From NCBI GenBank assembly GCA_002328075.1, contig DCVT01000015.1:75971-139970 (forward strand): DNA of 64,000 nt, in the 5' to 3' direction. Source of the stretch: Anaerolineales bacterium UBA2181 (lineage in GTDB: Bacteria; Chloroflexota; Anaerolineae; Promineifilales; UBA4811). Below the pieces are notes generated by a model, which was not told the origin of the DNA, searched no databases, and worked only from the letters and a program-made list of their open reading frames with translations. Of the stretch, positions 1 through 46,687 are shown in pieces. The position numbers were made by a program, and so were the translations under genes. Position 1 is the stretch's first letter. Every line of letters begins with the position of its first letter.

Positions 1-1295
1 GCGGTGGAGTCAGTGGAATGACGGCTGCCTTGACATTGGCCGACGCGGGGCAGGATGTAACGCTGGTGGAAATGTCGGATGCGTTGGGCGGAAATCTGCG
101 GTACATCTACTACCTGGCAGAGGGCCTAAATCCACATCGCTTGCTGCGTGACCTGGTCAATCGCATACGGGGAAACCACCGAATAGATGTCCTCCTGCGC
201 AGCCAGCTGAAATCGATGAGTGGGTCTATTGGGCGGTTCAGGAGCGTGATCGAGACTTGGCCAACATCGGACACGCCGACGACAACTGAGGTGGAACATG
301 GCGCGATCGTCGTGGCCACCGGCGGTCGGGAGGGAACTACGCGGAAATACCTCTATGGCCAGGATCCCCGCGTTGTGACGCAACTCCAATTGGAGGACTG
401 GATAGCCCATCAACCAGAAAAGGTGGCCAACCTAAGGCACCTGGTGATGGTGCAATGCGTTGAATCGGACGAAGTCGGTTACTTTTACTGCTCGCGCACC
501 TGCTGCACCAGCACCATGAAGAACGCCATTCGGGTAAAGATGCTCAACCCCGATTGCCAGGTGACCGTGCTGTACAAGGATATCATCACCTACGGTTTTC
601 GAGAGCAGTACTACACGGAGGCTCGTAGGCGTGGGGTGCTGTTTATCCGCTATGCCGATGAACGGCTGCCACTGGTGGATCTGGTCGACGGCGAGCTTGA
701 GGTCAGCGTCACTGATCCCAGCCTGGACCTTCGGCCCTACAAATTGAAACCGGATCTGATTTCTTTGAGCATGCCGGTGGTACCGTCTGATCTGACGGCC
801 CAACTCGCCGGGAAACTGAAGCTTCCGCTCTCGAGCGAAGGCTTTTTCCTGGAGGCGGATCTCAAGATGCGGCCGATGGATTTTGTGGCCGAGGGAATCT
901 ACCTGTGTGGTATGGCCCACTACCCGCGTTTCATCGAGGAATCGATCTCCAGCGCACAGGCCGCAGCCGGCCGCGCATTGACTATCCTTAGCCAGAGCCC
1001 GCTATACGTCGGCGGTGTGATAGCCGAGGTTGATCCGGAAAAGTGCGTCGGTTGTCTTACCTGTGTCCGCACCTGTCCCTTTAGCATACCGCATCTGCTG
1101 TATGACCGGGCCGGGGTGGGCGACTTGGGTGGCCATGCGTGGATCGATCCGGCCATTTGCCAGGGTTGCGGAACTTGCACCGGCGAATGCCCCGCAGCCG
1201 CCATCGAACTGGTGAACTATCGGGATGCGGATGTGTTCCTGGGCGGCAACTGGCTGGGCGCGTGGCTTCCCCAGGCCGCGACGGAAGAACGGTGA
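1..1295 (+). CDS. hdrA: HdrA-like FAD/FeS oxidoreductase, C-terminal module; 5' end cut by window edge
   Basis: The frame is open from nt 3 (GGVSGMTAALTLADAG is a GxGxxG dinucleotide fold). It has a YCSRTCC motif and a C-terminal pair of CxxCxxCxxxCP ferredoxin motifs. It is colinear with residues ~1130-1523 of the ORF at 1952..6523. Confidence 0.8.
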   Translation, partial: GGVSGMTAALTLADAGQDVTLVEMSDALGGNLRYIYYLAEGLNPHRLLRDLVNRIRGNHRIDVLLRSQLKSMSGSIGRFRSVIETWPTSDTPTTTEVEHGAIVVATGGREGTTRKYLYGQDPRVVTQLQLEDWIAHQPEKVANLRHLVMVQCVESDEVGYFYCSRTCCTSTMKNAIRVKMLNPDCQVTVLYKDIITYGFREQYYTEARRRGVLFIRYADERLPLVDLVDGELEVSVTDPSLDLRPYKLKPDLISLSMPVVPSDLTAQLAGKLKLPLSSEGFFLEADLKMRPMDFVAEGIYLCGMAHYPRFIEESISSAQAAAGRALTILSQSPLYVGGVIAEVDPEKCVGCLTCVRTCPFSIPHLLYDRAGVGDLGGHAWIDPAICQGCGTCTGECPAAAIELVNYRDADVFLGGNWLGAWLPQAATEER

Positions 1296-1300: not shown

Positions 1301-1780
1301 ATGGCCACTGATCAGGGACCAATCCAGATTTCGTCCGACAACATGTTTGAACCAGACCTGACGCTGTTCACCTGCAACTATTGCGCCTACATGGCCGGTG
1401 ACACAGCCGGTGCGCTGCGTCTACAATACCCGGCCAATGTCAAAATGGTCCGGCTTCCCTGCACGGGCAAGATCGATGTGCGTTATATCCTGGCTGCATT
1501 CGAGCAAGGGGCCGATGGCGTGTATATCGTCGCCTGCCCGATCGGTACTTGCCACCATGTTCGGGGTAACGAGCGGGCCCGTTCGCGGGTGGCTTTGGCG
1601 AAGAAGGTGCTGGACCAGATTGGCCTGGGCAGTGATCGGCTGGAGATCCATTTCCTGTCCGCCGGTCAAGGCACCACCTATGCTGCGGTGGCCAGGGATA
1701 TGGTGGAGAAAATCCGCCGTTTAGGTCCGAACCCGCTGCGCGCAAACCGTCTGGAGGCGTATCGACCAGGGAACGGCTGA
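1301..1780 (+). CDS. mvhD: MvhD-like (methyl-viologen-reducing hydrogenase delta subunit family) protein, Cys form
   Basis: Motifs FTCNYCAY, LPCTGK, GADGVYIVACPIGTCHH. I take ATG 1301 as the start, because the track ORF start at 1139 would overlap the upstream gene. The gene lies 5 nt after the upstream stop. Confidence 0.85.
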   Translation: MATDQGPIQISSDNMFEPDLTLFTCNYCAYMAGDTAGALRLQYPANVKMVRLPCTGKIDVRYILAAFEQGADGVYIVACPIGTCHHVRGNERARSRVALAKKVLDQIGLGSDRLEIHFLSAGQGTTYAAVARDMVEKIRRLGPNPLRANRLEAYRPGNG

Positions 1781-1951: not shown

Positions 1952-4900
1952 ATGGATAGCAATTCACCTGATGGAAAGCCCCTGGTAGGGGCCGTCATGG
2001 TGGTGGGGGGCGGTATCGCGGGGATGCAGGCGTCGCTGGACCTCGGCGAACAGGGGTTCAGGGTCTATTTGGTGGAGTCGGAGTCGGCGATTGGCGGCCA
2101 CATGGCCCAATTGGACAAGACGTTTCCCACCAATGACTGCTCCATGTGTACCATCAGCCCGAAATTGGTGGACGTCGGCCGGCACATCAACATCGAATTG
2201 CTGACCGACACAGACGTGCTGGACATGGCGGGCGCGCCGGGCGACCTCACCGTCCGAGTCAGACGCCGGCCGCGGTACATTGACTTGACCAAATGTGTGG
2301 GTTGTGGAGACTGCGCCAACGTCTGTCCGGTCATTCTGCCGGACCATTTTAACGAGCAATTGACGGATCGGCGCGCTGCGTTCAAGCTGTACCCTCAGGC
2401 CGTGCCCAACGCCTATGCCCTCGAGAAACGGGGTATTGCACCTTGCCGCGATGCCTGTCCGGCCGGGCAACGCGCGCAGGGGTATATCGCGCTGATCCGG
2501 GATGGCCGTCCCGAGGACGCCCTCCGCGTCATCAAGGAGGATAATCCCTTCCCCGGGATCTGCGGTCGGATCTGCAATCATCGCTGCGAGACTGCCTGCA
2601 ACCGGGGCAAGGTGGACGAAGCCATCAATATCCGCGCGCTCAAGCGCTACGTCACCGACACAGTGTACGCTCAGCCACGGGTGCCGGTCCCGCCGGCGGA
2701 GCGCCAATACGAACAGCGAGTGGCCATCATCGGCGCCGGGCCGTGCGGCCTTACGGCCGCCAAGGATCTCTGCCATGAAGGGTACGGCGTGACCGTCATC
2801 GAGGCGTTGCCGGTCGCCGGTGGCATGTTACGGGTCGGGGTACCCGAGTACCGGCTACCTACTGCCATCATTGACCGGGAGGTGCAGGACATTATTGACC
2901 TGGGTGTCGAACTGCGCCTGAACACGGTGGTGGAGAATCTGGACGACCTTTTTGCTGAGGGGTTCGACGCTGTGCTCATTGCGGTAGGAGCACACGAGGG
3001 GATACGGCTCCCCATTCCTGGGGCACAACTGGATGGCGTGTTGGTCAATACGCACTTTTTGCGCGACGTCCGACTGGGCAAGCACAACGGCAACAGCCGG
3101 TTAGGACGGGTTCTGGTTCTGGGTGGCGGGAACGTGGCGATGGACTGCGCGCGTACCGCTGTCCGACTGGGCGCGGACTCGGTGAGCATGGCCTGTCTCG
3201 AGCCGCGCGACGGTCTTCCGTGCCATGTGTGGGAAGCCCAGGCGGCCGAGGAAGAGGGAGTCACAATTTTCCCCAGCCGCACCTTTCTGCGAATACTGGA
3301 TGATGGCTTGGGTCGGGCGCGCGGGGTAGAGTGCAACCGGGTGACTTCGTTCTCGTTCGATCCCACCGGCCGGCTGGAGTTGGAGACTGAACCGCTCTCC
3401 AATCATGTGTTGGACTGCGACACGGTGATCTTTTCTGTGGGTCAGCGCGCCGGTCTTGCTTTCATCCCGGATGATGCCGGCGTTGGCCTGACCTCCAAAC
3501 GGACCGTCGCCATCAACCCGAATACGATGGCTGCCACCCGACCGGGCGTGTTCGCCGCCGGCGACAGCGTCAGCGGCACCGCTTTTGTGATCGAGGCGGT
3601 CGCCAGCGGCCATACCGCAGCTCGTTCGATTCACCGCTACCTTCGGGGCATGTACCTTGAGGCGCCGCACAAGCCTGAACTGCCGGTCGTTCAGATTACC
3701 GAGGCAGAGATAGAGCACCGCAAGCAGATCGGTGATATCCACATCCAGCGCCGGGTTCCAATGCAGGAATTGCCCGCTGAGAGACGCAGAGCGAGCTTTG
3801 ACGAGGTGGAGCAGGGGTACGATGACGTGTCGGCGCAGGCTGAGGCGGCTCGCTGCCTGGCGTGCGGATTGTGCTCCGAGTGCCTGAGCTGTGTTTACGA
3901 GTGCAAGGCAAATGCCATCGTCCACGACATGGTTGCTCAGACCGAGACGATTCGGGTGGGCGCTCTCATCCTCGCGCCGGGTTTCAAACCCTATCCGGCT
4001 GAGTTGTCGCAGGAGTATGGTTTTGGGCGTTACCCGAACGTGGTAACCGCGCTTCAGTTCGAGCGTTTGCTTTCCGCATCCGGACCTACCCAGGGCCACG
4101 TGGTCCGACCATCAAACCACAAGCCGGCGAAGAAGATTGCCTTCCTTCAGTGCATCGGCTCGCGGGATCGCATGCATGACTATTGTTCGTCGGTTTGCTG
4201 CATGTATGCCACCAAGCAAGCCATCATGGCCAAAGAGCACGAGCCGGACACCGAGATCCAGGTCTTTATGATGGACATGCGCTCCTTCAGCAAGGGCTAC
4301 GAGGAGTACTTTCATCGAGCGCGTGACAAATACGGTGTCAAGTACACCCGCTGCCGGGTATCGGCCGTGCGGCGCAACCCGCTGACCGAGAATCTGCTGG
4401 TGCGTTATGTTGTGGACGGTCCTGGCGCCCGACTACCAAAGGAGGAGGAGTTCGATCTGGTTGTCCTTTCGGTGGGCATGGAGATCGGCGAATCGACGCG
4501 GAACCTGGCGCGACAACTTGGCATCCAGTTGGATTCGTACGGGTTTGCCCGGACCGATAGCTTTCATCCGCTCCAGACCAGCCGGCCAGGGGTTTTCGCC
4601 ATTGGCCCTCTGCGGGAGCCCAAAGACATCCCCGAATCCGTGGTTGAGGCCAGCGGCGGCGCGGCGGCTGCGGCTGAGCTGTTGGCGCCGGTTCGGGGCA
4701 CAATGGCCACCCGCAAAGAGTACCCGCCGGAGCGGGATGTGTCGACCGAAGATCCCAAAGTCGGCGTCTTTGTGTGCCATTGTGGATCCAACATCGGCGG
4801 CTTTCTGGACGTTCCCGACGTGGCCGAGTATGCTCGGAGTCTTCCGGGCGTGGTTCACGCTGAGCACAACCTCTACACCTGTTCGCAGGATTCCATCGTG

Positions 4901-6523
4901 CACATAACGGAACAGGTGAAGGAATTGGGGTTGAACCGGGTGGTGGTTGCGTCCTGCACCCCGATCACGCATGAGCCGCTTTTCCGCGATAGCATTCGCG
5001 CCGCTGGCTTAAACCCGTTCTTGTTTGAGATGGCCAACATTCGGAATCACTGCTCCTGGGTCCACTCGGGCCAATGGGACGTGGCGACCGAAAAGGCAAA
5101 AGCGCTGGTGCGCATGGCGGTGGCCAAAGCCACCCGGATCCAGCCGCAGTACACCCAGGAGATGAAGGTAGAAAAGACCGTGCTGGTGATAGGCGGCGGT
5201 CCGGCCGGGTTGAACGCAGCACTTTCGCTGGCAAAGCAAGGCTTCCCGGTCGAGTTGGTGGAACGGACCGGGGAGTTGGGTGGCAACATACGGCATCTTT
5301 ACTATCTGGCGGACAGCGGGAACCTCCTGGCATCGGCGAAAACCGATCCGCAGGCATATCTGGTGGATCTGGTGGACCAGGTAACGCGCCATCCGCAGAT
5401 CACGGTTCACCTGAACACGGAATACGACCGGCTGGGCGGGTTCTCCGGCCAGTTTGTCAGCCGGTTCAACAAGCGCAACGGCAACGGAACGGAACCGGTG
5501 GAGGTGCGCCATGGCGCCATCATCGTCGCCACTGGCGGAAGGGAATACCGCGGCTCGGATTATGGCTTTGGGTCACATCACAACGTGATCACCCAGCAAG
5601 ACCTGGAGGAGCGTCTGTGGCGCTGGGAGAACCGGGAAGCCTCGGATCTGCCGCAATCGGTGGTCATGATTCAGTGCATCGGTCCGGCCGAGCAATATTG
5701 CTCGCGCATCTGCTGCACGGTGGCGCTCAAAAACGCCATCAAGCTCAAGGAGCTCGCTCCGAATACTCAGGTGACGGTCATTTACAAGGATATCAGAACC
5801 TTCGGCTTCAAAGAACGGTTATATTCGGCCGCTCGCGCCCGCGGAGTGCTATTCGTACGTTACAGCGATTCCCAACGGCCTGACGTCACGTGGTCCGACA
5901 GCGATGTGACCGGCACCCCGCCGCCCCTCAAGGTTGACGTGCATGACCCGGTTCTGGACCTGCCGTTGGAGTTGCGCCCAGACCTCGTGGTGCTTTCCAT
6001 GCCGCTGGTGCCGGCCGAAGGTGCTGAGGAGATGGTTAGCAAGCTGCGGGTTTCGGCCGACCTTGACGGCTGGTTCATGGAAGCACACGTCAAACTGCGG
6101 CCCGTCGACTTTAGCTCGGCCGGCATTTTCATGGCCGGCACGGCGCATTACCCCAAGTTTCTGGACGAGGCGATTGTGCAGGCCAACGCAGCGGCGGCGC
6201 GGGCCGCCAACCTTCTGGCATCCGACACCATGTTAGTGGGTGGGCAAGTGGCAGTGGTGGATGCTGAAAAGTGCGTGGGTTGCCTCACGTGCGTCCGCAT
6301 TTGCCCGTACCAAGTGCCAGAAATCCGATCCAGTTTGGGCGGCGTGGGCGAGATCGCTGGTGCTGCTTACGTGGAGCCGGCGGTCTGCCAAGGCTGTGGG
6401 TCGTGCGCTGCTGAATGCCCGGCGAAGGCGATACAATTGATGCATTACACAGACGCGCAACTGCTCTCCAAGGTTGACGCTCTGTTCGAGGTGTTTCCGG
6501 CCGACCGTATCCCGGTATTGTGA
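1952..6523 (+). CDS. hdrA: Giant HdrA-GltD-HdrA fusion flavoprotein (1523 aa)
   Basis: The N-terminus is HdrA-like (VVGGGIAGMQASLDL, FPTNDCSMC, CVGCGDCANVCP). An inserted glutamate-synthase-small-subunit/NfnB-like NAD(P)H module follows (GICGRICNHRCETACNRG, VAIIGAGPCGLTAAKDL, VLGGGNVAMDCART, GVFAAGD). The rest of HdrA then resumes (FLQCIGSRD..YCSSVCCMY, VFVCHCGSNIGG). A second HdrA-like module comes next (VIGGGPAGLNAAL, YCSRICCT), ending in a 2x[4Fe-4S] ferredoxin motif. Confidence 0.85.
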   Translation: MDSNSPDGKPLVGAVMVVGGGIAGMQASLDLGEQGFRVYLVESESAIGGHMAQLDKTFPTNDCSMCTISPKLVDVGRHINIELLTDTDVLDMAGAPGDLTVRVRRRPRYIDLTKCVGCGDCANVCPVILPDHFNEQLTDRRAAFKLYPQAVPNAYALEKRGIAPCRDACPAGQRAQGYIALIRDGRPEDALRVIKEDNPFPGICGRICNHRCETACNRGKVDEAINIRALKRYVTDTVYAQPRVPVPPAERQYEQRVAIIGAGPCGLTAAKDLCHEGYGVTVIEALPVAGGMLRVGVPEYRLPTAIIDREVQDIIDLGVELRLNTVVENLDDLFAEGFDAVLIAVGAHEGIRLPIPGAQLDGVLVNTHFLRDVRLGKHNGNSRLGRVLVLGGGNVAMDCARTAVRLGADSVSMACLEPRDGLPCHVWEAQAAEEEGVTIFPSRTFLRILDDGLGRARGVECNRVTSFSFDPTGRLELETEPLSNHVLDCDTVIFSVGQRAGLAFIPDDAGVGLTSKRTVAINPNTMAATRPGVFAAGDSVSGTAFVIEAVASGHTAARSIHRYLRGMYLEAPHKPELPVVQITEAEIEHRKQIGDIHIQRRVPMQELPAERRRASFDEVEQGYDDVSAQAEAARCLACGLCSECLSCVYECKANAIVHDMVAQTETIRVGALILAPGFKPYPAELSQEYGFGRYPNVVTALQFERLLSASGPTQGHVVRPSNHKPAKKIAFLQCIGSRDRMHDYCSSVCCMYATKQAIMAKEHEPDTEIQVFMMDMRSFSKGYEEYFHRARDKYGVKYTRCRVSAVRRNPLTENLLVRYVVDGPGARLPKEEEFDLVVLSVGMEIGESTRNLARQLGIQLDSYGFARTDSFHPLQTSRPGVFAIGPLREPKDIPESVVEASGGAAAAAELLAPVRGTMATRKEYPPERDVSTEDPKVGVFVCHCGSNIGGFLDVPDVAEYARSLPGVVHAEHNLYTCSQDSIVHITEQVKELGLNRVVVASCTPITHEPLFRDSIRAAGLNPFLFEMANIRNHCSWVHSGQWDVATEKAKALVRMAVAKATRIQPQYTQEMKVEKTVLVIGGGPAGLNAALSLAKQGFPVELVERTGELGGNIRHLYYLADSGNLLASAKTDPQAYLVDLVDQVTRHPQITVHLNTEYDRLGGFSGQFVSRFNKRNGNGTEPVEVRHGAIIVATGGREYRGSDYGFGSHHNVITQQDLEERLWRWENREASDLPQSVVMIQCIGPAEQYCSRICCTVALKNAIKLKELAPNTQVTVIYKDIRTFGFKERLYSAARARGVLFVRYSDSQRPDVTWSDSDVTGTPPPLKVDVHDPVLDLPLELRPDLVVLSMPLVPAEGAEEMVSKLRVSADLDGWFMEAHVKLRPVDFSSAGIFMAGTAHYPKFLDEAIVQANAAAARAANLLASDTMLVGGQVAVVDAEKCVGCLTCVRICPYQVPEIRSSLGGVGEIAGAAYVEPAVCQGCGSCAAECPAKAIQLMHYTDAQLLSKVDALFEVFPADRIPVL

Positions 6524-6533
6524 GGATTGGACT

Positions 6534-6956
6534 ATGGACGACCCGAGCTTTGAACCCCAGATCGTGACCTTTGCCTGCCACTACTGCGCCTATGCGGCGG
6601 CCGACCTGGCGGGCGGGCTGCGGCTCAAGTACCCGGCCGCTATCAAGATCATCGAATTGCCGTGCAGCGGCAAGCTTGACGTGATGCATGCATTGCGCGC
6701 CTTTGAAGACGGTGCGGATGGGGTACTGGTGGCAGGTTGACTGGAGGGCGATTGTCATTACCGGGACGGTAATATCAACGCCAGAAGACGAGTAGAACAC
6801 GTGCGCAAATTGCTCGACCAGATCGGACTGAGCGGTCGTCGCGTCCAGATGATCAATGTGTCTTCAGCCATGGGCGGGCAGTTTGCCTACCTGGCGGCCG
6901 AGATGACGTCAGAGATCGAAAAACTGGGCCCGAACCCGTTGCGAGGCGCAAAATGA
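6534..6956 (+). CDS. mvhD: MvhD-like protein with in-frame UGA (putative selenocysteine) at 6738..6740
   Basis: ATG 6534 is preceded by GAGGA. The N-terminal half (FACHYCAY..LPCSGK..GADGVLVAG) stops at TGA 6738. The same frame continues as LEGDCHYRDGN..GPNPLRGAK to TGA 6954-6956. The TGA aligns with the Cys of VACPIGTCHH in the paralog at 1301..1780. Confidence 0.75.
6756..6774 (+). promoter_or_regulatory. Putative bacterial SECIS hairpin
   Basis: ATTACCG-GGA-CGGTAAT forms a 6-7 bp stem with a G-rich apical loop, starting about 16 nt after UGA 6738. The identical core is found after the second in-frame UGA at 13700. Confidence 0.55.
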
Positions 6957-8140
6957 ACGCAACCACGGCCGAGACGTTGAAACGTTTCGGACCCTTTGCC
7001 GGGTTCGACGACCAGGAGATCGAGGAGATAGCCCAGCTCTGCCAGGAGCGTAACTACGGCGAGGGCGATGTGCTCTTTGTGGAGGATGAGCCGGCTGAAT
7101 GGCTCTTCCTTGTCCTGGAGGGTAGGCTCTCGCTGGAAAAGACGGTTCAACTCGGCCGCAGCGGTTCGTCGCGACGGGCTACCATCGACGTGGTGGGCCC
7201 GTATCAGGTTGGAGGCTGGTCCAGCGTCATTGCTCCCCACACCTACACATCCACCGGGGTCTGTCAAGAGCCGGCGCGAGTGTTGCTGCTGGACGGCCGG
7301 GCACTTCACGCCCTGATTGCGCGGTACCCAACGACCGGCCCGGTCTTTATGGATGCTATTGCCGCGATCATTTCTTCGCGGTTGCGCCAGACCACCACCA
7401 CATTGACGTATTTCCTCTCCATCATATCTCACGAGCTGAAATCGCCCCTGGCGGCAATTGAGAACTACTTACAGGTGATGCTGGGAGGATTCACCGGCGA
7501 ACTCAGCGAAAAGCAGCGGAGAATGTTGGAGCGGAGTGTGCTCCGTGTGACCGATTTGCGTGGCATGATCAACGACATTCTGGACCTGGCACGCATGAGG
7601 CCCGAGCAGGTGCAGGCGGATTTTGAGTGGGTTGATCCTTCGGTGCCGGGCAACCAGGCCATCGAAGATGTGCGGCTCGCGGCTCAGCAAAAGGACGTCA
7701 CCGTTCGGGTCGAAGCTCCGGCCGAGTTCAAGAAAATCGTTGCCGCACCGCGGCGGTTGCGCCAAGTGTACTCTAACTTGCTGTCCAATGCCGTCAAGTT
7801 TTCCCCCGATGGGGGCGAAGTAACGCTGATCGCCCGTGACGAGCCGGATGGTCTGGTGGTCGAGATACTGGATGAGGGCCCCGGTATTCCGGCCGACGAA
7901 CAGGTATACGTGTTCGAGGATTTCTACCGCGGCCGGAATGCCGGGGCGGTAGCCGGCTCAGGCCTGGGGCTTTCGATTGTGAAAAAGGTCGTTGAGGCTC
8001 ACGGGGGCTCAATCCGTGTGGAAAGCCCGTATCAGGAAGGCAAAACGGGTACCAAGGTTACGGTGAGGATTCCACGTAACCTGACTACTCCGGAGATGAG
8101 ACGTCGTCAGTGGTCTTTGCGCCAGGAGGACAAAGGATGA
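6953..8140 (+). CDS. Sensor histidine kinase with N-terminal cyclic-nucleotide-binding-like domain
   Basis: The N-terminal fold is cNMP/Crp-like (GDVLFVEDEPAEWLFLVLEGRLSL). It has an H-box SHELKSPL and N/G boxes (LLSNAVKFSP, DEGPGIP, GSGLGLSIV). The ATG overlaps the upstream stop as ATGA at 6953-6956. Confidence 0.85.
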   Translation: MNATTAETLKRFGPFAGFDDQEIEEIAQLCQERNYGEGDVLFVEDEPAEWLFLVLEGRLSLEKTVQLGRSGSSRRATIDVVGPYQVGGWSSVIAPHTYTSTGVCQEPARVLLLDGRALHALIARYPTTGPVFMDAIAAIISSRLRQTTTTLTYFLSIISHELKSPLAAIENYLQVMLGGFTGELSEKQRRMLERSVLRVTDLRGMINDILDLARMRPEQVQADFEWVDPSVPGNQAIEDVRLAAQQKDVTVRVEAPAEFKKIVAAPRRLRQVYSNLLSNAVKFSPDGGEVTLIARDEPDGLVVEILDEGPGIPADEQVYVFEDFYRGRNAGAVAGSGLGLSIVKKVVEAHGGSIRVESPYQEGKTGTKVTVRIPRNLTTPEMRRRQWSLRQEDKG

Positions 8141-8919
8141 TGCCGCAGCAACAGCCGTACATTCTGTTGGTGGATGATGACCCCGATATCTTGGAGGGTC
8201 TGGTTGCGGTCTTGGAGACTCAACCTTATCGGTTGGAGACCGCACGCGATGGCGTAGAATGCCTGGAGGCGATCGCTCGCGAGGTACCCGACCTGGTGAT
8301 CGTGGACCTGCTCATGCCACGCAAGGATGGGTTTGCCACCATCCGCGAGATTCGCAGCAGTCCAGGTCATTCCACGCTGTCTATCATGGTCCTGACCACC
8401 GTCGTTGAGGACGCCAGCCGGCGCCGCTATGAACTGGAGACCGGGCTGGACATGGATGTTCAGGACTATATGGAAAAACCCGTCGCTCCGGTCGAGCTGC
8501 TGAGGCGGGTTGCCAACATCTTGGAGCAGCCTTCCATACTGGTGGCGGACGACGATCCGGATATCCTGGAGGGTATCGTGACGGTGCTCAAGAGCCAACC
8601 CTATCGCTTGCGGGCAGCCAGAGACGGTCGGGAATGTCTGGACCTCATATACCGCAAACGTCCCGACCTGCTCATCCTGGACCTGCTCATGCCCAAGATG
8701 GATGGTTTTGCCGTCATCCGAGAACTCCGCCGGGAACCGGCGTTTGCTGACCTGCCTATCATGGTTTTGACCGCCGTGTTGGAGGATGCCAGCCACCGCC
8801 GGTACGAACTGGAGACGGGCCGGCAGATGCGGGTGAACACCTACATAGAAAAGCCGGTGGCCCCGGCCGAGCTGCTGGCTCGGGTGGACCAGCTGCTCAA
8901 GGCCAGATTCGGGTCATGA
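8137..8919 (+). CDS. Tandem-receiver response regulator (REC-REC, no output domain)
   Basis: There are two ~125-aa internal repeats. Each has DDDPDILEG, the phospho-acceptor context DL(V/L)I(V/L)DLLMP(R/K)(K/M)DGF, and (M/I)EKPV. An AGGAGG RBS lies 7 nt upstream of ATG 8137. The start overlaps the kinase stop as ATGA. Confidence 0.85.
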   Translation: MMPQQQPYILLVDDDPDILEGLVAVLETQPYRLETARDGVECLEAIAREVPDLVIVDLLMPRKDGFATIREIRSSPGHSTLSIMVLTTVVEDASRRRYELETGLDMDVQDYMEKPVAPVELLRRVANILEQPSILVADDDPDILEGIVTVLKSQPYRLRAARDGRECLDLIYRKRPDLLILDLLMPKMDGFAVIRELRREPAFADLPIMVLTAVLEDASHRRYELETGRQMRVNTYIEKPVAPAELLARVDQLLKARFGS

Positions 8920-11900
8920 TGGATCACCCAGATCGCGTGATCGAACCGGCAGCGCAACCGCAGCCTGTAGGAGCTGTCATGGTTGTGGGTGCGGGTATTG
9001 GTGGCATCCAGGCCTCGCTGGACCTGGCAGAAACCGGCTACAAGGTCTATCTGGTGGAGAGCCGGTCTGCCATCGGCGGGCGAATGGCGCAGTTGGATAA
9101 GACGTTTCCCACCAACGATTGTGCGATGTGCATTGTCAGCCCCAAGTTGGTGGATGCCGGTCGTCACCTCAACATTGAGTTGATGACCGATACGGACGTG
9201 ATGGATGTGTCCGGACCCCCGGGCGATATGTCCGTACGGTTGGTCCGAAAACCCCGGTATGTGGACCTGACCAAGTGCGTCGGCTGCGGCGATTGTGCGG
9301 ACGTGTGTCCGGTGGTCTTGCCCGACAAGTTCAACGAGGGCCTTGCCCTGCGTCGCGCTGCATTCAGGCTCTATCCGCAGGCCGTGCCCAACGCCTATGC
9401 CGTTGAGAAGCTGGGCATTGCCCCCTGCCGTGATGCCTGCCCCACCGGTCAACGCGCGCAGGGCTATATCGCGCTGATCCGCGAGGGCCGCTTTCATGAT
9501 GCGTTGCGCGTGATCAAAGAGGACAACCCGTTCCCCGGGATCTGCGGGCGAATCTGCAACCACCGATGTGAGACCGCCTGCAACCGCGGTAAACTGGACG
9601 AGCCCGTCAATATCCGGGCGCTCAAGCGGTTCGTGACCGACAAGGTGTATGCCGAACCGCGCGCTCCCGTGGCGCCGGCTGAGGTCAAATACGCGGAGCG
9701 GGTGGCGATCATCGGCGCCGGACCATGTGGACTCACCGCGGCACAGGACCTGGCCAAGACCGGATACCTAGTCACGGTCGTGGAGGCCCTGCCGGTAGCC
9801 GGCGGCATGCTGCGGGTCGGGGTGCCCGAGTATCGCCTGCCGACCGCCATTATCGAACGTGAGGTTCAGGATGTACTGGATCTGGGGGTCAAGCTGCGCC
9901 TGAACACCACGGTGGAGAACCTGGACGATCTCTTTGCCGAGGGGTTCCAGGCAGTCCTCATTGCCGTGGGTGCCCACGAGGGTATTCGCCTCGCTGTGCC
10001 TGGGGCTAACCTCGATGGCGTTCTGATCAACACCAGTTTCCTGCGCGACGTCCGGTTGGGTAATCCGCCGAAATTGGGAAAACGAACGGCGGTCATTGGT
10101 GCAGGCGATGTCGCCATGGACGTAGCCCGCACAGCCCTCCGGCTGGGCGCGCAGGTGGATCTCTACTATCGCCGCCTGCGCGAGGAAGCCACTGCCGACG
10201 ACGAAGAGATGACGCACGCCGAGGAAGAAGGCGCTGCATTCCACTGGCAGACCACGCCGATTGAGGTCATGGGTGAGGCGGGCCGCGTGGTCGGGCTCAA
10301 GATGGTGCGCACCGAACAGGGCTTACCCGACGAGACCGGCCGGCGGCGACCGGTGCTGGTCCCGGGATCCGAGCGCGTCGTACCCTGCGAGAATGTCATC
10401 TTTTCGGTCGGGCAGCGGGCCGGCCTGGCATTCATCCCCGAGAGCGTCGGCGTGGGGGTCACTAACCAGGCCACTGTGGCTGTCAATCCCCATACGCTGG
10501 CGGCCAGCCGACCCGGTGTCTTTGCTGCCGGTGACGTCACCACCGGCACCGCCTTTGTCATTGAGGCAGTGCAGGCGGGTCATCAGGCGGCCGAATCCAT
10601 ACATCGTTACATCCGTGGCAAGGAATTAGAGTCGCCACCCAAGCCCAAACTGCCGGTGGTGGAACTGGTCCGGGCAGACATCGACGAACGCGTGGCGCGT
10701 GGCGAGGTCAAACCCCAGCCGCGAGTGCCGATGGACCGGCTGCCGCCCACTGATCGCCGCGGGTCGTTTGACGAGGTGGTGGCAGGTTACACGGATGAGA
10801 AGGCACAGGCCGAAGCCGCGCGGTGTCTGGCCTGTGGGGTCTGTTCTGAATGCCTGAGTTGCCAGTACACCTGCCAGGCAGACGCCATCGTGCACGATGC
10901 GACGGCACGCACCGAGTCCGTCCAGGTTGGCGCGATGATTTTGGCACCCGGATTCGAGCCATTTGCGGCTAACCGGTTGCAGGAGTATGGGTTTGGTCGC
11001 TACCACAACGTCGTGACATCGCTCCAGTTTGAGCGGTTGCTCAGCGCTTCCGGGCCCACCTTCGGTCACGTCAATCGGCCAGGCGACGGCCAGCCGGCCA
11101 AGAGGATTGCCTTTCTGCAGTGCATCGGATCTCGCGATGCGGACCACGATTACTGTTCCTCGGTTTGCTGCATGTATGCAACCAAAGAGGCGATCATGGC
11201 TATCGAACATGATCGCGAGACCGAGGCGCACATCTTTATGATGGATATGCGCTCCTTTAGCAAGGGGTATGACGAGTACTATCGCCGGGCCCGGGACAAA
11301 TGCGGGGTGCGCTATACACGGTGCCGCGTATCAGCCGTACGCGAGAACCGCGCGAATGGCAACCTTATCATCCGGTACGTTTCAGAGGACGCACCCGAGC
11401 CGGAGCGGCTCTCTTTGGTCAGCGAAAAGGAGTTCGACCTGGTGGTGCTCTCGGTGGGCATGGAGGTCGCCGCGAGCGCCCGAGAACTGACCCGCCGGCT
11501 TGGAGTTGACCTGGACCGATCCGGGTTCTGTCGAACAGAGATGTTGGAGCCGTTGCAGACCTCGCATCCGGGCGTGTTTGTTGTCGGTCCATTCCGCGAA
11601 CCCAAGGATATTCCAGAGACGGTGGTCGAAGCCAGCGGAGCTGCAGGCGCGGTTGCCGGTTTGCTACAGGGTGGTCGTTGGACTCTCACCCGGGAAAAGG
11701 AATACCCACCGGCGCGCCGGGTGGATGATGAAGAGCCGCGAGTCGGGGTTTTTGTCTGCCACTGCGGATCTAACATAGGCGGCTATCTGGATGTTCCAGC
11801 GGTCACCGAGTACGCAGCTACCCTCCCTTCGGTGGCGCATGCAGAGAACAACCTGTATACGTGTTCGCAAGATTCGATTGCTCGTATCAGCCAACGGGTG

Positions 11901-13481
11901 CAGGAATTGGGGCTCAACCGGGTGGTCGTGGCAGCCTGCACGCCGTTGACGCACGAGCCCCTGTTCCAGGACAGCCTGCGATCGGCCGGGTTGAATCCCT
12001 ATCTGTTTGACATGGCCAACATCCGCAACCAGTGCTCCTGGGTACACGGCGATGACTGGGATGCGGGTACGGGCAAGGCCAAGGACCTGGTGCGGATGGC
12101 GGTCGCCCGGGCGTCGCTGTTGGAGCCCCTCAGCAAGACGGTCGTGCCAGTGCAGAAACGGGCGCTGGTGATCGGCGGCGGCCCGGCCGGGATGCACGCC
12201 TCCCTGGCGTTGGCCAAGCAGGGGATTGCTGTGACCCTGGTAGAGCGCGAGGCTGAGCTGGGTGGCAACCTCCGCCGACTGCGGTATCTGGCGGACGTGC
12301 AGCACAGCGAGCAGCCAGTTGCGTTGATCGACGCCCGCGCGTATCTGAACGACCTGGTCCGCGAGGTGACGACGGACCCGCTCATCGAAGTACGTGTGCA
12401 CACCCAACTGGTGAGCAGCGGCGGTTTCAAGGGCAACTTCCGATCCGTGCTGCGGTCACCAGACAGCCAGACTGAGATTGAGCACGGTGCCACGATCATC
12501 GCCACGGGTGGGCAAGAACACCGAGGGCCAGAGTATCGACACGGGGCCGATCCCAGGATCATGACCCTGTTCGATTTCGAGGCGCGTCTGGCGGATTGGG
12601 AGGATGGCCCTCTGCCGGAAAGGCCAGAGTTGCCGGGGTCGGTGGTGGTCATTCTCTGTGCAGGCAGCCCGGCTGATCGGTACTGCAGTCGTGTCTGTTG
12701 TGCTGCCGCCCTCAAGAATATTCTGGCACTGAAGCAACTGAACCCGGACGTGCAGGTAACCGTGTTCTATCGGGACATACGCACGTTTGGCTTCAAGGAG
12801 CGGCTGTACACCGAGGCGCGCCGTCAACGGGTGCTGTTTGTGCGCTATGACGATGATCGTCGGCCGGTAGTGGACCTGCCAGCGGACGGTAAGGATCTCA
12901 CCGTGACCGGTCGGGAGCCTGTACTGAAGCAGGATCTGGTTCTCTACCCCGATCTGGTGGTACTGGCTATGCCGATGGTGCCAGCAGGCGAGGCCGGCGA
13001 AATGGCACGCACCCTCAAAGCGGGGCAGGACCTGGACGGCTGGATTATGGAGGCGCACGTCAAGCTCAGGCCGGTGGATCTGGCTACCGAAGGCCTGTAT
13101 GTAGCCGGCTGCGCACATTATCCCAAGTTCGTGGAAGAGGTCATCGCCCAGGCACAAGCCGCGGCTGGTCGCGCCATGACAGTGCTCAGCCGAGATTGGC
13201 TCGAGGTCGGGGGTGTTGTCGCCAAGGTTGACTCTGCGCTTTGCGTGGGTTGCCTGACCTGTGTTCGGATCTGTCCTTTCAACGTCCCCACTATCGATCC
13301 GCACCTTGCGGGGGTCGGCGGCATCGCGGGAGCGGCGGTCATCGAGCCGGCCCTCTGCCAGGGTTGTGGAATCTGTGTGGGAGAGTGTCCTGCCAAGGCA
13401 ATCCGGCTGCAGCACTATCAGGACGAACAGCTCAGGGCCAAGATAGCAACTTTCTGGCCAGCAGAGCCAGTGCCAGCCTGA
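8916..13481 (+). CDS. hdrA: Second giant HdrA-GltD-HdrA fusion flavoprotein (1521 aa), paralog of 1952..6523
   Basis: It is colinear with the first fusion and carries the same motif series (FPTNDCAMC, GICGRICNHRCETACNRG, VAIIGAGPCGLTAAQDL, FLQCIGSRD..YCSSVCCMY, VFVCHCGSNIGG, YCSRVCCAAAL, C-terminal 2x CxxCxxCxxxCP). The start overlaps the response regulator stop as ATGA. Confidence 0.85.
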   Translation: MMDHPDRVIEPAAQPQPVGAVMVVGAGIGGIQASLDLAETGYKVYLVESRSAIGGRMAQLDKTFPTNDCAMCIVSPKLVDAGRHLNIELMTDTDVMDVSGPPGDMSVRLVRKPRYVDLTKCVGCGDCADVCPVVLPDKFNEGLALRRAAFRLYPQAVPNAYAVEKLGIAPCRDACPTGQRAQGYIALIREGRFHDALRVIKEDNPFPGICGRICNHRCETACNRGKLDEPVNIRALKRFVTDKVYAEPRAPVAPAEVKYAERVAIIGAGPCGLTAAQDLAKTGYLVTVVEALPVAGGMLRVGVPEYRLPTAIIEREVQDVLDLGVKLRLNTTVENLDDLFAEGFQAVLIAVGAHEGIRLAVPGANLDGVLINTSFLRDVRLGNPPKLGKRTAVIGAGDVAMDVARTALRLGAQVDLYYRRLREEATADDEEMTHAEEEGAAFHWQTTPIEVMGEAGRVVGLKMVRTEQGLPDETGRRRPVLVPGSERVVPCENVIFSVGQRAGLAFIPESVGVGVTNQATVAVNPHTLAASRPGVFAAGDVTTGTAFVIEAVQAGHQAAESIHRYIRGKELESPPKPKLPVVELVRADIDERVARGEVKPQPRVPMDRLPPTDRRGSFDEVVAGYTDEKAQAEAARCLACGVCSECLSCQYTCQADAIVHDATARTESVQVGAMILAPGFEPFAANRLQEYGFGRYHNVVTSLQFERLLSASGPTFGHVNRPGDGQPAKRIAFLQCIGSRDADHDYCSSVCCMYATKEAIMAIEHDRETEAHIFMMDMRSFSKGYDEYYRRARDKCGVRYTRCRVSAVRENRANGNLIIRYVSEDAPEPERLSLVSEKEFDLVVLSVGMEVAASARELTRRLGVDLDRSGFCRTEMLEPLQTSHPGVFVVGPFREPKDIPETVVEASGAAGAVAGLLQGGRWTLTREKEYPPARRVDDEEPRVGVFVCHCGSNIGGYLDVPAVTEYAATLPSVAHAENNLYTCSQDSIARISQRVQELGLNRVVVAACTPLTHEPLFQDSLRSAGLNPYLFDMANIRNQCSWVHGDDWDAGTGKAKDLVRMAVARASLLEPLSKTVVPVQKRALVIGGGPAGMHASLALAKQGIAVTLVEREAELGGNLRRLRYLADVQHSEQPVALIDARAYLNDLVREVTTDPLIEVRVHTQLVSSGGFKGNFRSVLRSPDSQTEIEHGATIIATGGQEHRGPEYRHGADPRIMTLFDFEARLADWEDGPLPERPELPGSVVVILCAGSPADRYCSRVCCAAALKNILALKQLNPDVQVTVFYRDIRTFGFKERLYTEARRQRVLFVRYDDDRRPVVDLPADGKDLTVTGREPVLKQDLVLYPDLVVLAMPMVPAGEAGEMARTLKAGQDLDGWIMEAHVKLRPVDLATEGLYVAGCAHYPKFVEEVIAQAQAAAGRAMTVLSRDWLEVGGVVAKVDSALCVGCLTCVRICPFNVPTIDPHLAGVGGIAGAAVIEPALCQGCGICVGECPAKAIRLQHYQDEQLRAKIATFWPAEPVPA

Positions 13482-13492: not shown

Positions 13493-13987
13493 ATGATCAA
13501 GGACGTGTGTAACGAACCCGGGATTTTAGCCTTTTGTTGTCGGCATTGTGCCTACGTGGCGGCTGACCTGGCTGGTTCAATGAGACTGAGATATCCGGCC
13601 AGCCTGCGGGTGGTCGAGATTCCCTGCTCGGGCAAGTTTGAGGTGATTCAGGCGCTCTATGCCTTCGAGCGGGGAGTAGATGGCGTCATGGTGGCGGGTT
13701 GACTGGAAGGCGACTGTCATTACCGGGACGGTAATGTAAAAGCCAAGCGACGAGTGGAGTATGCGAACAGGCTGCTGGAGCAGATCGGTCTTTCTGGCGG
13801 TCGGATACGGATGGTTAACGTCTCTTCTGCCATGGGAGCTCGGTTTGCGGAGCAAGCCACTCAGATGACTGAGCATCTGCGACAGCTTGGGCCAAGTCCG
13901 CTTCGGCGTCTGAGCAGCTCCGCGTCAGTTCAGGACGCGCATGCCGACCGGCCGCAGGCTCCGGACGCCAGCGATATTGTTATGTGA
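13493..13987 (+). CDS. mvhD: MvhD-like protein with in-frame UGA (putative selenocysteine) at 13700..13702
   Basis: ATG 13493 is preceded by GAGGAG. FCCRHCAY..IPCSGK..GVDGVMVAG runs to TGA 13700. The same frame (13754-13493 = 261 nt) continues as LEGDCHYRDGNVKAKRRVEYANRLLEQIGLSGGRIRMVNVSSAMG... to TGA 13985-13987. Confidence 0.75.
13718..13736 (+). promoter_or_regulatory. Putative bacterial SECIS hairpin (second copy)
   Basis: CATTACCG-GGA-CGGTAATG forms an 8-bp stem starting 15 nt after UGA 13700. The core is identical to 6756..6774, while flanking synonymous and non-synonymous positions differ. Confidence 0.55.
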
Positions 13988-14567: not shown

Positions 14568-14622
14568 AGGAGCATGCTGCCTCGATTTGGCACTCTGCCT
14601 TTTTCAAGAGAGAGGTTTCAAT

Positions 14623-15372
14623 ATGATCGTAGGGGAACAAAAACCGCTGGAAGAGATAAAGGGGTTTCTGGATGGCAGTCAAAAAGTGCTGGTCGTTGGT
14701 TGCGGCACCTGTGTGACTGTCTGTTTTGCCGGAGGCGAAAAGGAGGCACAGATCTTGGCGGCCTCGCTCCGGATGAGCACTGCCCTCACTGGTGCACCCA
14801 AGGAGGTCACCGATGTCACCGTGCAGCGCCAGTGCGAATGGGAATACCTGGACCTGATAAAAAACGAGGTTCAGGAGGCAGACATCATCGTGTCCATCGC
14901 TTGCGGAATCGGCGTGCAGGCAATGGCCAAGCACTTTCCGGACAAATGGGTGGTGCCAGGGCTGAACACGACGTTTCTGGGGCTGCCCGAGGAACAGGGT
15001 ATTTGGACCGAGCAATGCCAGGCATGCGGAAACTGCATTCTGGCCCTCACTGGCGGGATCTGTCCCATAGCTCGATGCTCGAAGCAGCTGCTCAATGGAC
15101 CCTGCGGCGGTTCGGAGAAGGGGCTTTGCGAGGTCAAGCGAATAAAGCGGGAGCACGGGCTGCCCGTCATGCAGACAGATGCTCGCGGCCGAAAAACCCC
15201 CGTGATCGAGGATGTGGACTGTGCCTGGCACCTGATCCACGAGCGCCTAAAGGCGTTGGGCAAGCTGGATATGCTCACGCAAATACAACCACCCAAAGAT
15301 TGGTCTACGGCAAGGGATGGCGGTCCTCGGCGGATTGTCCGTGAGGACCTCATGTTGTTGGATGAGGGATAA
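14623..15372 (+). CDS. metV: MetV-type methylene-THF reductase accessory subunit (MTHFR C-terminal-like, Cys-rich)
   Basis: Cys clusters VVGCGTCVTVCFAGG, CQACGNCIL, GICPIARCSK..NGPCGG. It lies immediately upstream of metF, the arrangement seen in acetogen metVF clusters. ATG 14623 has an upstream AGAGAGG. Confidence 0.75.
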   Translation: MIVGEQKPLEEIKGFLDGSQKVLVVGCGTCVTVCFAGGEKEAQILAASLRMSTALTGAPKEVTDVTVQRQCEWEYLDLIKNEVQEADIIVSIACGIGVQAMAKHFPDKWVVPGLNTTFLGLPEEQGIWTEQCQACGNCILALTGGICPIARCSKQLLNGPCGGSEKGLCEVKRIKREHGLPVMQTDARGRKTPVIEDVDCAWHLIHERLKALGKLDMLTQIQPPKDWSTARDGGPRRIVREDLMLLDEG

Positions 15373-15373
15373 C

Positions 15374-16360
15374 ATGTCGGCACAGGATTCAAATGGCTAC
15401 AAATCTGGCGGGAATCTGGAAAAGGTACTGCGGGGAGGTTACTTTGCGGTAACCGGGGAGCTGGGTCCGCCGCAGAACGCCGACGGCGACCACATTCGGA
15501 AGAAGGCATCCCACCTGCGCGGAGTGGTGGATGCGGTCAACATCACGGACAACCAGACTGCGGTCGTGCGCATGTCCTCTCTGGGAGCGGCATTCGTGGC
15601 GATCCAGGAGGGCCTAGAACCGGTCATGCAGATGACCTGTCGTGACCGGAACCGGCTGGCTATGCAGGCCGATTTCCTGAGTGCGTACGCATCTGGTGTG
15701 CGCAACATGCTGGCGTTGACGGGTGACCATCAATCGTTTGGAAACCACCCTACGGCCAAGAACGTTCATGACATTGACTCGCTCCAACTGATTCGCATGC
15801 TGCGGGATCTCCGGGATGAGAAAAAGTTCGAGTGTGGTGAGGCGATCAAAGGACAAGAACCCCGGTTTTTCATCGGCGCGGCTGCCGCTCCAGAAGCGGG
15901 TCCGACCGAATACCGACCATACCGCCTGGCAAAGAAGGTGGAGGCTGGGGCGGACTTTGTGCAGACCCAACTGGTGTACAATGTGGAGGCATTTAAAAAG
16001 TTCATGGAGGTGGTCCGGCAACTCGGGCTGCACGAGAAGCTATTCATCTTGGTCGGTGTCGGGCCACTCAAGGGCCCGGCCATGGCACGGTACATGCGCG
16101 ATTTCGTGCCGGGAATCACCATGCCGGACCACATCATTGAGCGGATGGAGAACGCAGCGGCGAATATTCCCAAGGAAGAAAAGAACGCCCGTAACCAGGC
16201 CTGGCGAGACGAGGGGATCAAGGTCTGCATCGAGATCATCCAGCAGGTGCGTGATATTGAGGGCGTGGCCGGCGTGCACGTGATGGCCATCGAGTGGGAA
16301 GAGGCGGTAAGGCCGATTGTGGATGGAGCTGGCCTGTTGCCCCGGCCGGCGGTGGACTAG
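15374..16360 (+). CDS. metF: 5,10-methylenetetrahydrofolate reductase
   Basis: MetF motifs are present (AVNITDN, MQMTCRDRNR, NMLALTGD, FFIGAAAAPE, GADFVQTQLVYN). It starts 1 nt after the metV stop. Confidence 0.85.
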   Translation: MSAQDSNGYKSGGNLEKVLRGGYFAVTGELGPPQNADGDHIRKKASHLRGVVDAVNITDNQTAVVRMSSLGAAFVAIQEGLEPVMQMTCRDRNRLAMQADFLSAYASGVRNMLALTGDHQSFGNHPTAKNVHDIDSLQLIRMLRDLRDEKKFECGEAIKGQEPRFFIGAAAAPEAGPTEYRPYRLAKKVEAGADFVQTQLVYNVEAFKKFMEVVRQLGLHEKLFILVGVGPLKGPAMARYMRDFVPGITMPDHIIERMENAAANIPKEEKNARNQAWRDEGIKVCIEIIQQVRDIEGVAGVHVMAIEWEEAVRPIVDGAGLLPRPAVD

Positions 16361-19404: not shown

Positions 19405-19465
19405 TTGCCGGTGCGTACAAGGCTCTGATCGGGCCGGCACCGTCGGGTCCAAGACGCAAGGAGGT

Positions 19466-32157: not shown

Positions 32158-32179
32158 GCTGACCCCACCAGGCAGATCG

Positions 32180-32207
32180 TTGACAACCCGAATCCGGGCG
32201 TTATACT
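32180..32207 (+). promoter_or_regulatory. Possible promoter for the NAD salvage genes
   Basis: TTGACA (32180-85), a 16-nt spacer, then TATACT (32202-07). Confidence 0.4.
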
Positions 32208-32277
32208 TTTGGTAGTTGGTACATTAAATACTGCCGGGATAGCACAGCGCCAACAGCGCCTAATTGAGGAGCCAAGG

Positions 32278-32991: not shown

Positions 32992-33004
32992 GCCTTGCCA
33001 TATT

Positions 33005-33796: not shown

Positions 33797-33940
33797 CACG
33801 GAAACCGGCGGGTCCGCGCATCAGGCGGCGAGTATCATGGAATTGGTCTGGCCTGGAGCCACCGGCGAAAAGCGCCTGGTGCGCTGAGGGCAGACGCGGC
33901 ACTGGATCCGTGGCCAAAGAAGAAATCTGATGGGAGTGGA

Positions 33941-39463: not shown

Positions 39464-39469
39464 CTAAAT

Positions 39470-46651: not shown

Positions 46652-46687
46652 ACTTTGCTCCTGCGTTGGTCTGATCTTTATGCCGTG

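Follow-up and report, generated by a model that had tools for sequence, protein, structure and literature searches.

The 64,000 nt stretch of Anaerolineales bacterium UBA2181 analysed here (contig DCVT01000015.1, positions 75,971 to 139,970; hereafter the window) begins with a gene array that includes two very large open reading frames (ORFs) related to hdrA. HdrL copy 1 (1952..6523) encodes a protein of 1523 amino acids (aa) and HdrL copy 2 (8916..13481) one of 1521 aa; positions are those of the window, and features lie on the + strand unless stated otherwise. The two proteins align end to end with 64 % identity and 76 % positives, which bears out the two colinear paralogs of about 1520 aa described in an earlier, sequence-only reading of this DNA. 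Both have the same domain order: the first part of a TrxR-like flavin adenine dinucleotide (FAD) module, a GltD-type insert, the remainder of this TrxR module 1, an HdrA N-terminal domain, a second TrxR-like module and a C-terminal ferredoxin domain. Judged by sequence, both genes encode HdrL, the Moorella-type HdrA of Type IV methylene-tetrahydrofolate (methylene-THF) reductase, a widespread and previously described family.

Pfam searches identified Fer4_20 and a complete Pyr_redox_2 domain at residues ~163-570 of both copies (E = 6e-52 for the Pyr_redox_2 match in copy 1), together with three more dinucleotide folds and ferredoxin motifs. Among the NCBIfam models, those for HdrA and HdrA2 matched four stretches of each copy, located on both sides of the GltD module and at the C-terminus, while GltD/NfnB-type models covered residues 158-661. 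The broad subfamily model NF009410/PRK12771 (‘NAD(P)-binding protein’) scored 517.7 and 519.9 in the two copies against a cut-off of 516. Scores stayed below the cut-offs for the canonical methanogen HdrA equivalog NF041778 (679 and 640 bits; cut-off 1400), for HdrA2 (NF040770; 910 and 894 bits; cut-off 1100), for gltA (TIGR01316; 304 and 358; cut-off 471.75) and for TIGR01318 (258 and 279; cut-off 483). The order of a canonical single-polypeptide HdrA, in which the N-domain is followed by a TrxR module with an inserted ferredoxin domain and then by a C-terminal ferredoxin domain, was not found; the domains are permuted and duplicated here. The insert matched solved structures with E values of 1e-51 to 1e-93, namely NfnB (4YLF_B, 8e-73), NfnI-L (5JCA_L, 1e-64) and GltD (6S6S_G, 2e-51), as well as 9BOV_A (a ‘molybdopterin oxidoreductase’ chain of 1178 aa, 1e-92), the StnC-type 8OH5_C (1e-80) and 9N5U_A (a chain named NfnA, 1e-77). 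On these matches the inserted module is GltD/NfnB-like and the protein as a whole is neither GltD nor NfnB. The module resembles NfnB, NfnI-L, StnC and GltD (4YLF, 5JCA, 8OH5, 6S6S) in combining Fer4_20 with an FAD fold and an NAD(P)H fold, but it is embedded in HdrA and has neither an NfnA/PyrK-like [2Fe-2S]-FAD partner nor GltB. The folds are fixed by sequence matches to solved HdrA (E = 1e-179) and NfnB (E = 1e-73), and a search of the PDB detected no chain with the HdrL architecture.

These profile and structure matches agree with the earlier proposal of a GltD/NfnB-like NAD(P)H-FAD module lying inside an HdrA. The motif quoted for it, CGRICNHRCETACNRG, is present at residues 204-218, and the first of the two reported GxGxxG folds is the FAD fold GAGPCG at residue 261; the second, GGGNVA/GAGDVA at residues 391/395, has the form GxGxxA.

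A domain map was derived by alignment to the solved HdrA of Methanothermococcus thermolithotrophicus (5ODC_A) combined with a multiple alignment. Residues 15-160 of copy 1 (1994..2431) correspond to HdrA 146-291 (165 bits) and form the first part of TrxR-like FAD module 1, with GGGIAG, FPTNDCSMC and cluster motif 1 of the inserted ferredoxin domain, CVGCGDCANVCP. The GltD/NfnB-like insert occupies residues 161-640 (2432..3871) and contains two [4Fe-4S] sites (PCRDACP, CGRICNHRCETAC and RCLAC), the FAD fold GAGPCG and the NAD(P)H fold GGGNVA. Residues 641-912 (3872..4687) are equivalent to HdrA 293-~560, with 641-843 aligning to 293-495, and comprise cluster motif 2 of the inserted ferredoxin domain (CSECLSCVYEC) and the remaining part of TrxR module 1 (QCIGSRD..YCSSVCC), including E704 and K755. 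The insertion point therefore falls between HdrA residues 291 and 293 and is identical in both paralogs. By this alignment the insert sits in the middle of the ferredoxin domain that in methanogen HdrA passes low-potential electrons to ferredoxin. Residues 927-1070 (4730..5161) are a homolog of the N-terminal, MvhD-like [4Fe-4S] domain of HdrA (VCHCG, YTCSQ, ASCTP and HCSW), residues 933-1083 aligning to HdrA 2-152 with 162 bits. TrxR-like FAD module 2 follows at residues 1075-1430 (5174..6241; GGGPAG, QCIG..YCSRICC, E1219 and K1260). It has lost the FPTNDCxxC motif and the entire inserted ferredoxin domain, leaving an alignment gap where HdrA residues 238-315 belong. The C-terminal ferredoxin domain with two [4Fe-4S] sites (CVGCLTCVRICP and CQGCGSCAAECP) lies at residues 1433-1513 (6248..6490), and residues 1332-1513 align to HdrA 475-651. 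A second HdrA-like module at the C-terminus, as claimed by the sequence-only reading, is thus present but with other boundaries: the first HdrA unit is without its N-terminal and C-terminal domains, and the second unit begins at about residue 927 with an HdrA N-domain.

Cofactor sites were counted from conserved motifs. Each copy has four dinucleotide folds, three for FAD and one for NAD(P)H (GGGIAG, GAGPCG, GGGNVA/GAGDVA and GGGPAG), and about nine Cys4 motifs by motif count, compared with eight [4Fe-4S] clusters predicted for the Moorella HdrA. In an alignment of 121 sequences, 39 cysteines and all glycines of the GxGxxG motifs were invariant and the junction residues were conserved. The Glu/Lys pair E356/K409 (M. 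thermolithotrophicus HdrA numbering) is the literature marker of bifurcating HdrA flavins. Such pairs are found in both TrxR modules of both proteins (E704/K755 and E1219/K1260 in copy 1; E706/K757 and E1222/K1267 in copy 2). The pair of module 1 was invariant in 30 diverse family members (30 of 30); in module 2 the glutamate was kept in 26 and the lysine in 23 of the same 30.

The alignment of the two copies showed that they diverge most in the NAD(P)H-binding subdomain of the insert. Copy 2 carries DLYYRRLREEATA (YYRR), which is aligned with the YRR of the NADPH-binding NfnI-L, NfnB and GltD structures, and copy 1 has SMACLEPRDGLP (ACLE) at this position, so that CLE stands in place of YRR. 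As a rule of thumb, an arginine pair recognises the 2'-phosphate of NADPH, and a preference for NADH goes with an acidic residue. Since the paralogs differ mainly in this nucleotide-binding subdomain, copy 1 is predicted to be an NADH-type and copy 2 an NADPH-type HdrL, encoded close together. ACLE was present in 118 of the 121 closest homologs of copy 1 and YYRR in the other three, and a syntenic relative, represented by a 1.08-Mb contig (L001), encodes orthologs of the two copies that keep the difference. Among the loci fetched from across the family, 58 YRR motifs were counted versus 31 xLE motifs. No association of motif type with adjacency to metVF was detected in these loci, YRR and xLE each occurring with and without metVF. 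As both motif types occur across the family and both beside metVF, the predicted split would be a family feature and not a peculiarity of the window. A third variant of the subdomain, GGGITALD...HLALDRP, which is neither YRR nor CLE, was seen in the second HdrL, adjoining metVF, of two Anaerolineae relatives (at ~16067 in L013 and ~16016 in L014).

Long fusion genes raise the concern that the ORFs are assembly chimeras, or that separate hdrA and gltD reading frames have been fused. More than 120 clusters at 90 % identity (NCBI, JGI, ENA and Logan) contained homologs of 1488-1652 aa with 64-78 % identity and 98-100 % coverage, most of them labelled Anaerolineae or Chloroflexota. A genome scan, with one genome per GTDB species, returned at least 600 matches across many phyla. 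The best 80 loci were full-length and derived from Chloroflexota, Desulfobacterota, Acidobacteriota, Bacillota, Armatimonadota, Aminicenantes, TA06, Planctomycetota, Nitrospinota and one Thermoplasmatota archaeon. Members of 1473-1483 aa are encoded in complete isolate genomes of Desulfotomaculia (Desulfoscipio gibsoniae, Desulforamulus ruminis and Desulfotomaculum nigrificans), and full-length alignments to Desulfobacteraceae, Syntrophobacterales and Bacillota members had 43-48 % identity. When clustered at 50 % identity, the representatives included about 20 full-length proteins (~1470-1530 aa), shorter variants of ~1110-1140 aa (N-domain, TrxR and GltD) and ~910 aa (TrxR and GltD), and a further variant of ~1000 aa with a double TrxR and no GltD. 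Because the same architecture recurs in more than 120 independent clusters, in at least 80 GTDB genomes of many phyla and in complete isolate genomes, chimeric assembly, which the sequence-only reading had named as a danger to its claim, is rejected for these ORFs, and nothing was found in its favour; the conserved junction residues and the identical insertion point in both paralogs also speak against an artefact, the probability of which is negligible.

A gene for MvhD, the MvhD/FlpD [2Fe-2S] protein, follows each of three large genes, the two HdrL genes and the truncated ORF at the window start, after 5 to 12 nt, with mvhD beginning 11-12 nt past each HdrL stop codon. The first, mvhD copy 0 (1301..1780), is a cysteine form (VACPIGTCHH) that matches positions 3-123 of the 123-position FlpD profile with E = 1.2e-43. 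The mvhD genes following the two HdrL genes, copy 1 (6534..6956) and copy 2 (13493..13987), each contain an in-frame TGA, at 6738..6740 (VAG-U-LEGDCHY) and 13700..13702, respectively, which aligns with a cysteine of mvhD copy 0. If the TGA is read through, the two products cover the entire FlpD profile (1-123) with 157 and 153 bits, as against 77.6 bits for the truncated ORF. A hairpin resembling a selenocysteine insertion sequence (SECIS), AUUACCG-GGA-CGGUAAU, was identified by folding 19-20 nt after the UGA and is conserved in both genes. In 81 loci the UGA column held Cys 72 times and a TGA stop codon 24 times. Given the read-through profile match, the conserved hairpin and the Cys/TGA column, the mvhD genes after both fusions are identified, from sequence, as genes for selenocysteine MvhD, as are mvhD1, 2, 3 and 5 of Desulfobacterium autotrophicum (PMC2702500). 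An Rfam search around the UGA gave no match to a SECIS family, and selenocysteine machinery was not found within the 64-kb window. Selenocysteine mvhD genes are called too short by gene callers, as 66 and 69 aa in L001. Across the family, mvhD was directly downstream of HdrL in 66 of 72 related loci (92 %).

The window start truncates a third HdrA-like gene, and the ORF at 3..1295 is what is left of it, the 3' part. It encodes TrxR-like module 2 and a C-terminal ferredoxin domain with two [4Fe-4S] sites and is matched by HdrA models. A third copy of the fusion had been suggested for 1..1295; the resemblance to the C-terminal HdrA module stands, but a third GltD fusion is disfavoured. The encoded protein has 45-47 % identity to the C-terminal modules of both fusions, which are 54 % identical to each other, and 82 % identity over 426 aa to residues 620-1045 of a 1046-aa HdrA in L001. 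This syntenic ortholog has two TrxR modules, an intact ferredoxin domain and no Fer4_20/GltD match, and for this reason the ORF most likely derives from a paralog without GltD and probably represents the end of a double-TrxR HdrA of about 1046 aa. Both proteins resemble Sporomusa ovata HdrA and archaeal type II HdrA in having two TrxR modules and a following mvhD; the L001 protein, like these, lacks an NAD(P)H module, and of its two modules only module 1 contains an inserted ferredoxin domain, which is intact. They differ in the Glu/Lys pair, which is limited to one module in S. ovata and is also present in module 2 of the L001 protein and of ORF 3..1295.

Between the two HdrL-MvhD units lie genes for a cytoplasmic histidine kinase with an N-terminal cyclic-nucleotide-binding domain (6953..8140; cNMP_binding, HisKA and HATPase_c) and for a response regulator that has two receiver domains but lacks an output domain (8110..8919), the stop codon of which overlaps the start of copy 2. 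The start and stop codons of this pair (6953..8919) overlap those of its neighbours, and the arrangement is kept in L001, L003, L013 and L014. Downstream of copy 2 the order is mvhD, a GNAT gene, metV, metF and a fused hdrCB. The metV product (14587..15372) is a zinc-ribbon/Fe-S partner of MetF (DUF5981; PF12225, E = 1.5e-31). The metF gene (15317..16360) encodes methylene-THF reductase (PF02219, E = 6e-41), and its true start is probably somewhat downstream of 15317. The fused HdrC-HdrB-like protein (16432..17847) contains a ferredoxin domain with two [4Fe-4S] sites and two CCG domains (CCG and Fer4_17). All genes of the array, from 1 to 17.8 kb, are co-directional, with junctions that overlap or measure about 10 nt. 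Among related loci, metV/metF lay within 3.5 kb downstream of HdrL-MvhD in 32 of 60. The contig of L001 indicates which genes to expect upstream of the window start: there an NfnB-like gene, RACo, CooC, AcsE and FolD precede the 1046-aa HdrA, mvhD, HdrL, mvhD, histidine kinase, response regulator, HdrL, mvhD, GNAT, metV, metF and hdrCB, and from the HdrA gene onwards the order is that of the window. By this synteny, the array lies in a Wood-Ljungdahl gene cluster of Anaerolineae (Chloroflexota). The two selenocysteine mvhD genes, the cysteine form and metV-metF-hdrCB supply a functional context that had been missed when only the fusions were described.

The architecture had been put forward as unusual; it is in fact already described as HdrL, as the Moorella HdrA and as archaeal type III HdrA, and has at least 600 matches in GTDB genomes. 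The MetFV-HdrABC-MvhD complex of Moorella was reportedly described by Mock et al. in 2014. The 162.8 kDa HdrA of this Moorella thermoacetica complex was dissected by Kremp et al. in 2022 (PMC9430772), and the published description fits the present proteins almost residue for residue. Its N-terminal ferredoxin and TrxR part is interrupted by GltD; residues 922-1487 comprise an MvhD-like domain, TrxR and a C-terminal ferredoxin, without an inserted ferredoxin domain; eight [4Fe-4S], three FAD and one NAD(P)H site are predicted; and NADH is oxidised at 190 U/mg with benzyl viologen (PMC9430772). At ~1490 aa, the Moorella protein (Moth_1194) is close in length to the 1521-1523 aa found here, with the same domain order by the published description and Glu/Lys pairs at near-equal positions (E696/K750 and E1204/K1246, versus E704/K755 and E1219/K1260). 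Its gene is likewise followed by mvhD and metVF, with HdrC and HdrB encoded nearby. The window differs from Moorella in its Anaerolineae host, in the fusion of HdrC with HdrB, in having two GltD-containing paralogs and one GltD-less paralog, each with its own mvhD, in two mvhD genes that encode selenocysteine, and in the two-component system embedded in the array. Copy 2 also has the NADPH-type YRR, whereas the Moorella enzyme was assayed with NADH.

HdrL of D. autotrophicum was described by Strittmatter et al. in 2009, every hdrL being followed by mvhD and several of these proteins containing selenocysteine (PMC2702500), and HdrL of S. fumaroxidans has been detected in proteomes (PMC5947623). 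As here, HdrL of sulfate reducers combines a large HdrA with a GltD-type domain that binds NADH, its gene is always followed by mvhD, and selenocysteine is present in proteins associated with it. Unlike here, the partners are often dsr, fdh or hdrABC, with DsrC as the proposed acceptor, and some of the sulfate-reducer HdrL proteins themselves contain selenocysteine, which in the window is confined to MvhD. Archaeal type III HdrA with the same insertion was reported by Chadwick et al. in 2022 (PMC9012536) and in a 2025 survey (PMC12054007). In these proteins (ANME-1 HdrA9-11, Bathyarchaeota A10 and ‘A9-TRX-C’) an NfnB/GltD-like insert of about 500 aa interrupts the inserted ferredoxin domain, as in the window. 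They are rare, however (nine sequences), mostly have a single TrxR module and carry the HdrA N-domain at the N-terminus; their nucleotide fold is reported as GxGxxG, compared with GxGxxA here, and their context is CoM-S-S-CoB metabolism rather than metVF. Within Anaerolineae, marine hdrA-mvhD-metVF clusters with a fused hdrCB and two-component genes nearby were described by Sewell et al. in 2017 (PMC5736913). The HdrL family being widespread and previously described, the find is ordinary apart from the predicted NADH/NADPH split.

It is likely that the two copies are large subunits that oxidise NAD(P)H in methylene-THF reductase complexes of the Hdr type. In canonical HdrA, the inserted ferredoxin domain is the exit to ferredoxin. 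In the present proteins this domain would be covered by the insert and reused as the entry for NAD(P)H electrons. We infer a path in which a hydride from NAD(P)H would pass to the FAD of the GltD/NfnB-like insert. Electrons would then leave it singly and reach the FAD of TrxR module 1 by way of the pair of GltD [4Fe-4S] clusters and the pair in the split inserted ferredoxin domain. From there, one branch would lead through the HdrCB-like protein to MetV/MetF and the reduction of methylene-THF. The other would enter the N-domain, go on to the FAD of module 2 and from there to the C-terminal ferredoxin domain, and end, via the [2Fe-2S] cluster of MvhD, at a putative third redox partner. Two such branches would make the reaction a bifurcation or a confurcation, and the oxidative direction is also possible. 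A hard-wired pyridine-nucleotide entry combined with two bifurcation-type flavins, as anticipated by the sequence-only reading, agrees with what has been proposed for type III HdrA of the same architecture, where the insert is thought to block ferredoxin access and feed in electrons from NAD(P)H, possibly with two bifurcation sites (PMC9012536, PMC12054007).

Several points weigh against this assignment. The biochemical support comes from the Moorella HdrA, outside Chloroflexota, and for that system the passage of electrons from NADH on to methylene-THF had not been reconstituted and the third partner not identified as of 2026 (PMC13040438). The predicted NADH/NADPH assignment is read from the motif rule by itself. 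Only copy 2 is near metVF; copy 1 lies about 8 kb upstream, with the two-component system and copy 2 in between. In addition, 28 of the 60 related loci are without metVF within 3.5 kb of HdrL, and the HdrL loci of D. autotrophicum and S. fumaroxidans adjoin dsrABC, fdh or hdrABC genes (PMC2702500, PMC5947623). The gene-order points among these favour a different role, in which one or both HdrL-MvhD units are general NAD(P)H-linked Hdr modules and serve another acceptor than MetVF, such as a DsrC-like disulfide, ferredoxin or the complex of the GltD-less HdrA, in line with what has been put forward for sulfate-reducer HdrL. Such a role is considered unlikely here, given the co-directional array with its overlapping or ~10-nt junctions, its position within the Wood-Ljungdahl methyl-branch cluster in L001 and the lack of dsr and fdh genes within the 64-kb window.

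A second alternative concerns the extra branch itself. The complex might be a linear, non-bifurcating NAD(P)H:methylene-THF oxidoreductase with no third substrate, in which the extra flavin module and MvhD are structural or a plain wire. Reduction of methylene-THF by NADH is exergonic by itself, non-bifurcating HdrA homologs exist (PMC9430772), a third substrate has never been identified (PMC13040438), and module 2 is without the FPTNDCxxC cysteines and the inserted ferredoxin domain, all of which would suit a linear enzyme. The Glu/Lys pair nevertheless shows no variation in module 1 and is mostly preserved in module 2, and mvhD is retained beside 92 % of family members, which argues for a functional extra branch. 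The linear enzyme is therefore judged distinctly improbable, and a branched, Hdr-type methylene-THF reductase with HdrL as its NAD(P)H-oxidising subunit is preferred.

Other features were identified elsewhere in the window. A few genes downstream of metV-metF-hdrCB, two tandem fusions (19358..20902 and 20902..22380) each join a DHDPS-family domain, resembling class I pyruvate aldolases, to a formaldehyde-activating-enzyme (Fae) domain, and the pair recurs in the contig of a relative (L082). Homologs with 71-81 % identity form more than 100 clusters from Anaerolineae metagenomes and are annotated as 4-hydroxy-tetrahydrodipicolinate synthase only; among the papers searched for a DHDPS-Fae fusion, none mentioned one. 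The fusion may be an aldolase that releases formaldehyde and passes it on to a carrier of the folate or pterin type; its novelty may exceed that of the HdrL finding. The remaining features include a T-box leader (26123..26432; 100 bits, gathering score 93) upstream of a gene for a pyridoxal phosphate-dependent enzyme (26567..27931) and a block of NAD metabolism genes (31459..35305) that encodes an NrtR-like Nudix regulator with a winged-helix domain, an isochorismatase/nicotinamidase-like protein, an NAD synthase and a protein with a QRPTase N-terminal domain. A class A bacterial RNase P RNA was identified at 39476..39837 (221 bits), and the minus-strand ORF lying over it (39464..40102) is spurious. 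The stretch 42711..64000 (mostly on the - strand) holds a dense Ser/Thr-kinase/FHA/PP2C signalling cluster. Three protein kinases belong to it, one of them 1147 aa long and containing FHA and TSP3 repeats, as do five FHA-domain proteins, a PP2C phosphatase, C39-like and M23 peptidases and a Big_13 Ig-like protein.

How Hdr-type (Type IV) methylene-THF reductases work is a standing question in the bioenergetics of acetogens and the Wood-Ljungdahl pathway (PMC13040438). The window adds Chloroflexota members to a family described in Bacillota, Desulfobacterota and archaea, and the overall picture is unchanged. The predicted NADH/NADPH split may be the one modest new lead of this analysis. In a reading of low probability, the conserved Anaerolineae array, with its embedded cyclic-nucleotide-sensing two-component pair, could encode a Type IV methylene-THF reductase whose entry subunits for pyridine nucleotides are exchangeable or co-assembled; its three units, each paired with an MvhD of its own, are built on the GltD-less HdrA, the predicted NADH-type HdrL and the predicted NADPH-type HdrL. 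The boldest form of this reading, a folate-coupled NADH/NADPH system in which NADP(H) is itself the third substrate, is a long shot. If it were true, methylene-THF reduction by NADH would power that of NADP+, which would make the complex a folate-coupled transhydrogenase; the other option is a confurcation of NADH and NADPH. The locus offers a natural experiment, with colinear paralogs that differ chiefly in the nucleotide subdomain (ACLE versus YYRR) and a GltD-less paralog alongside, and this set provides candidate isoforms with specificity for NADH or NADPH, which could also serve structural studies.

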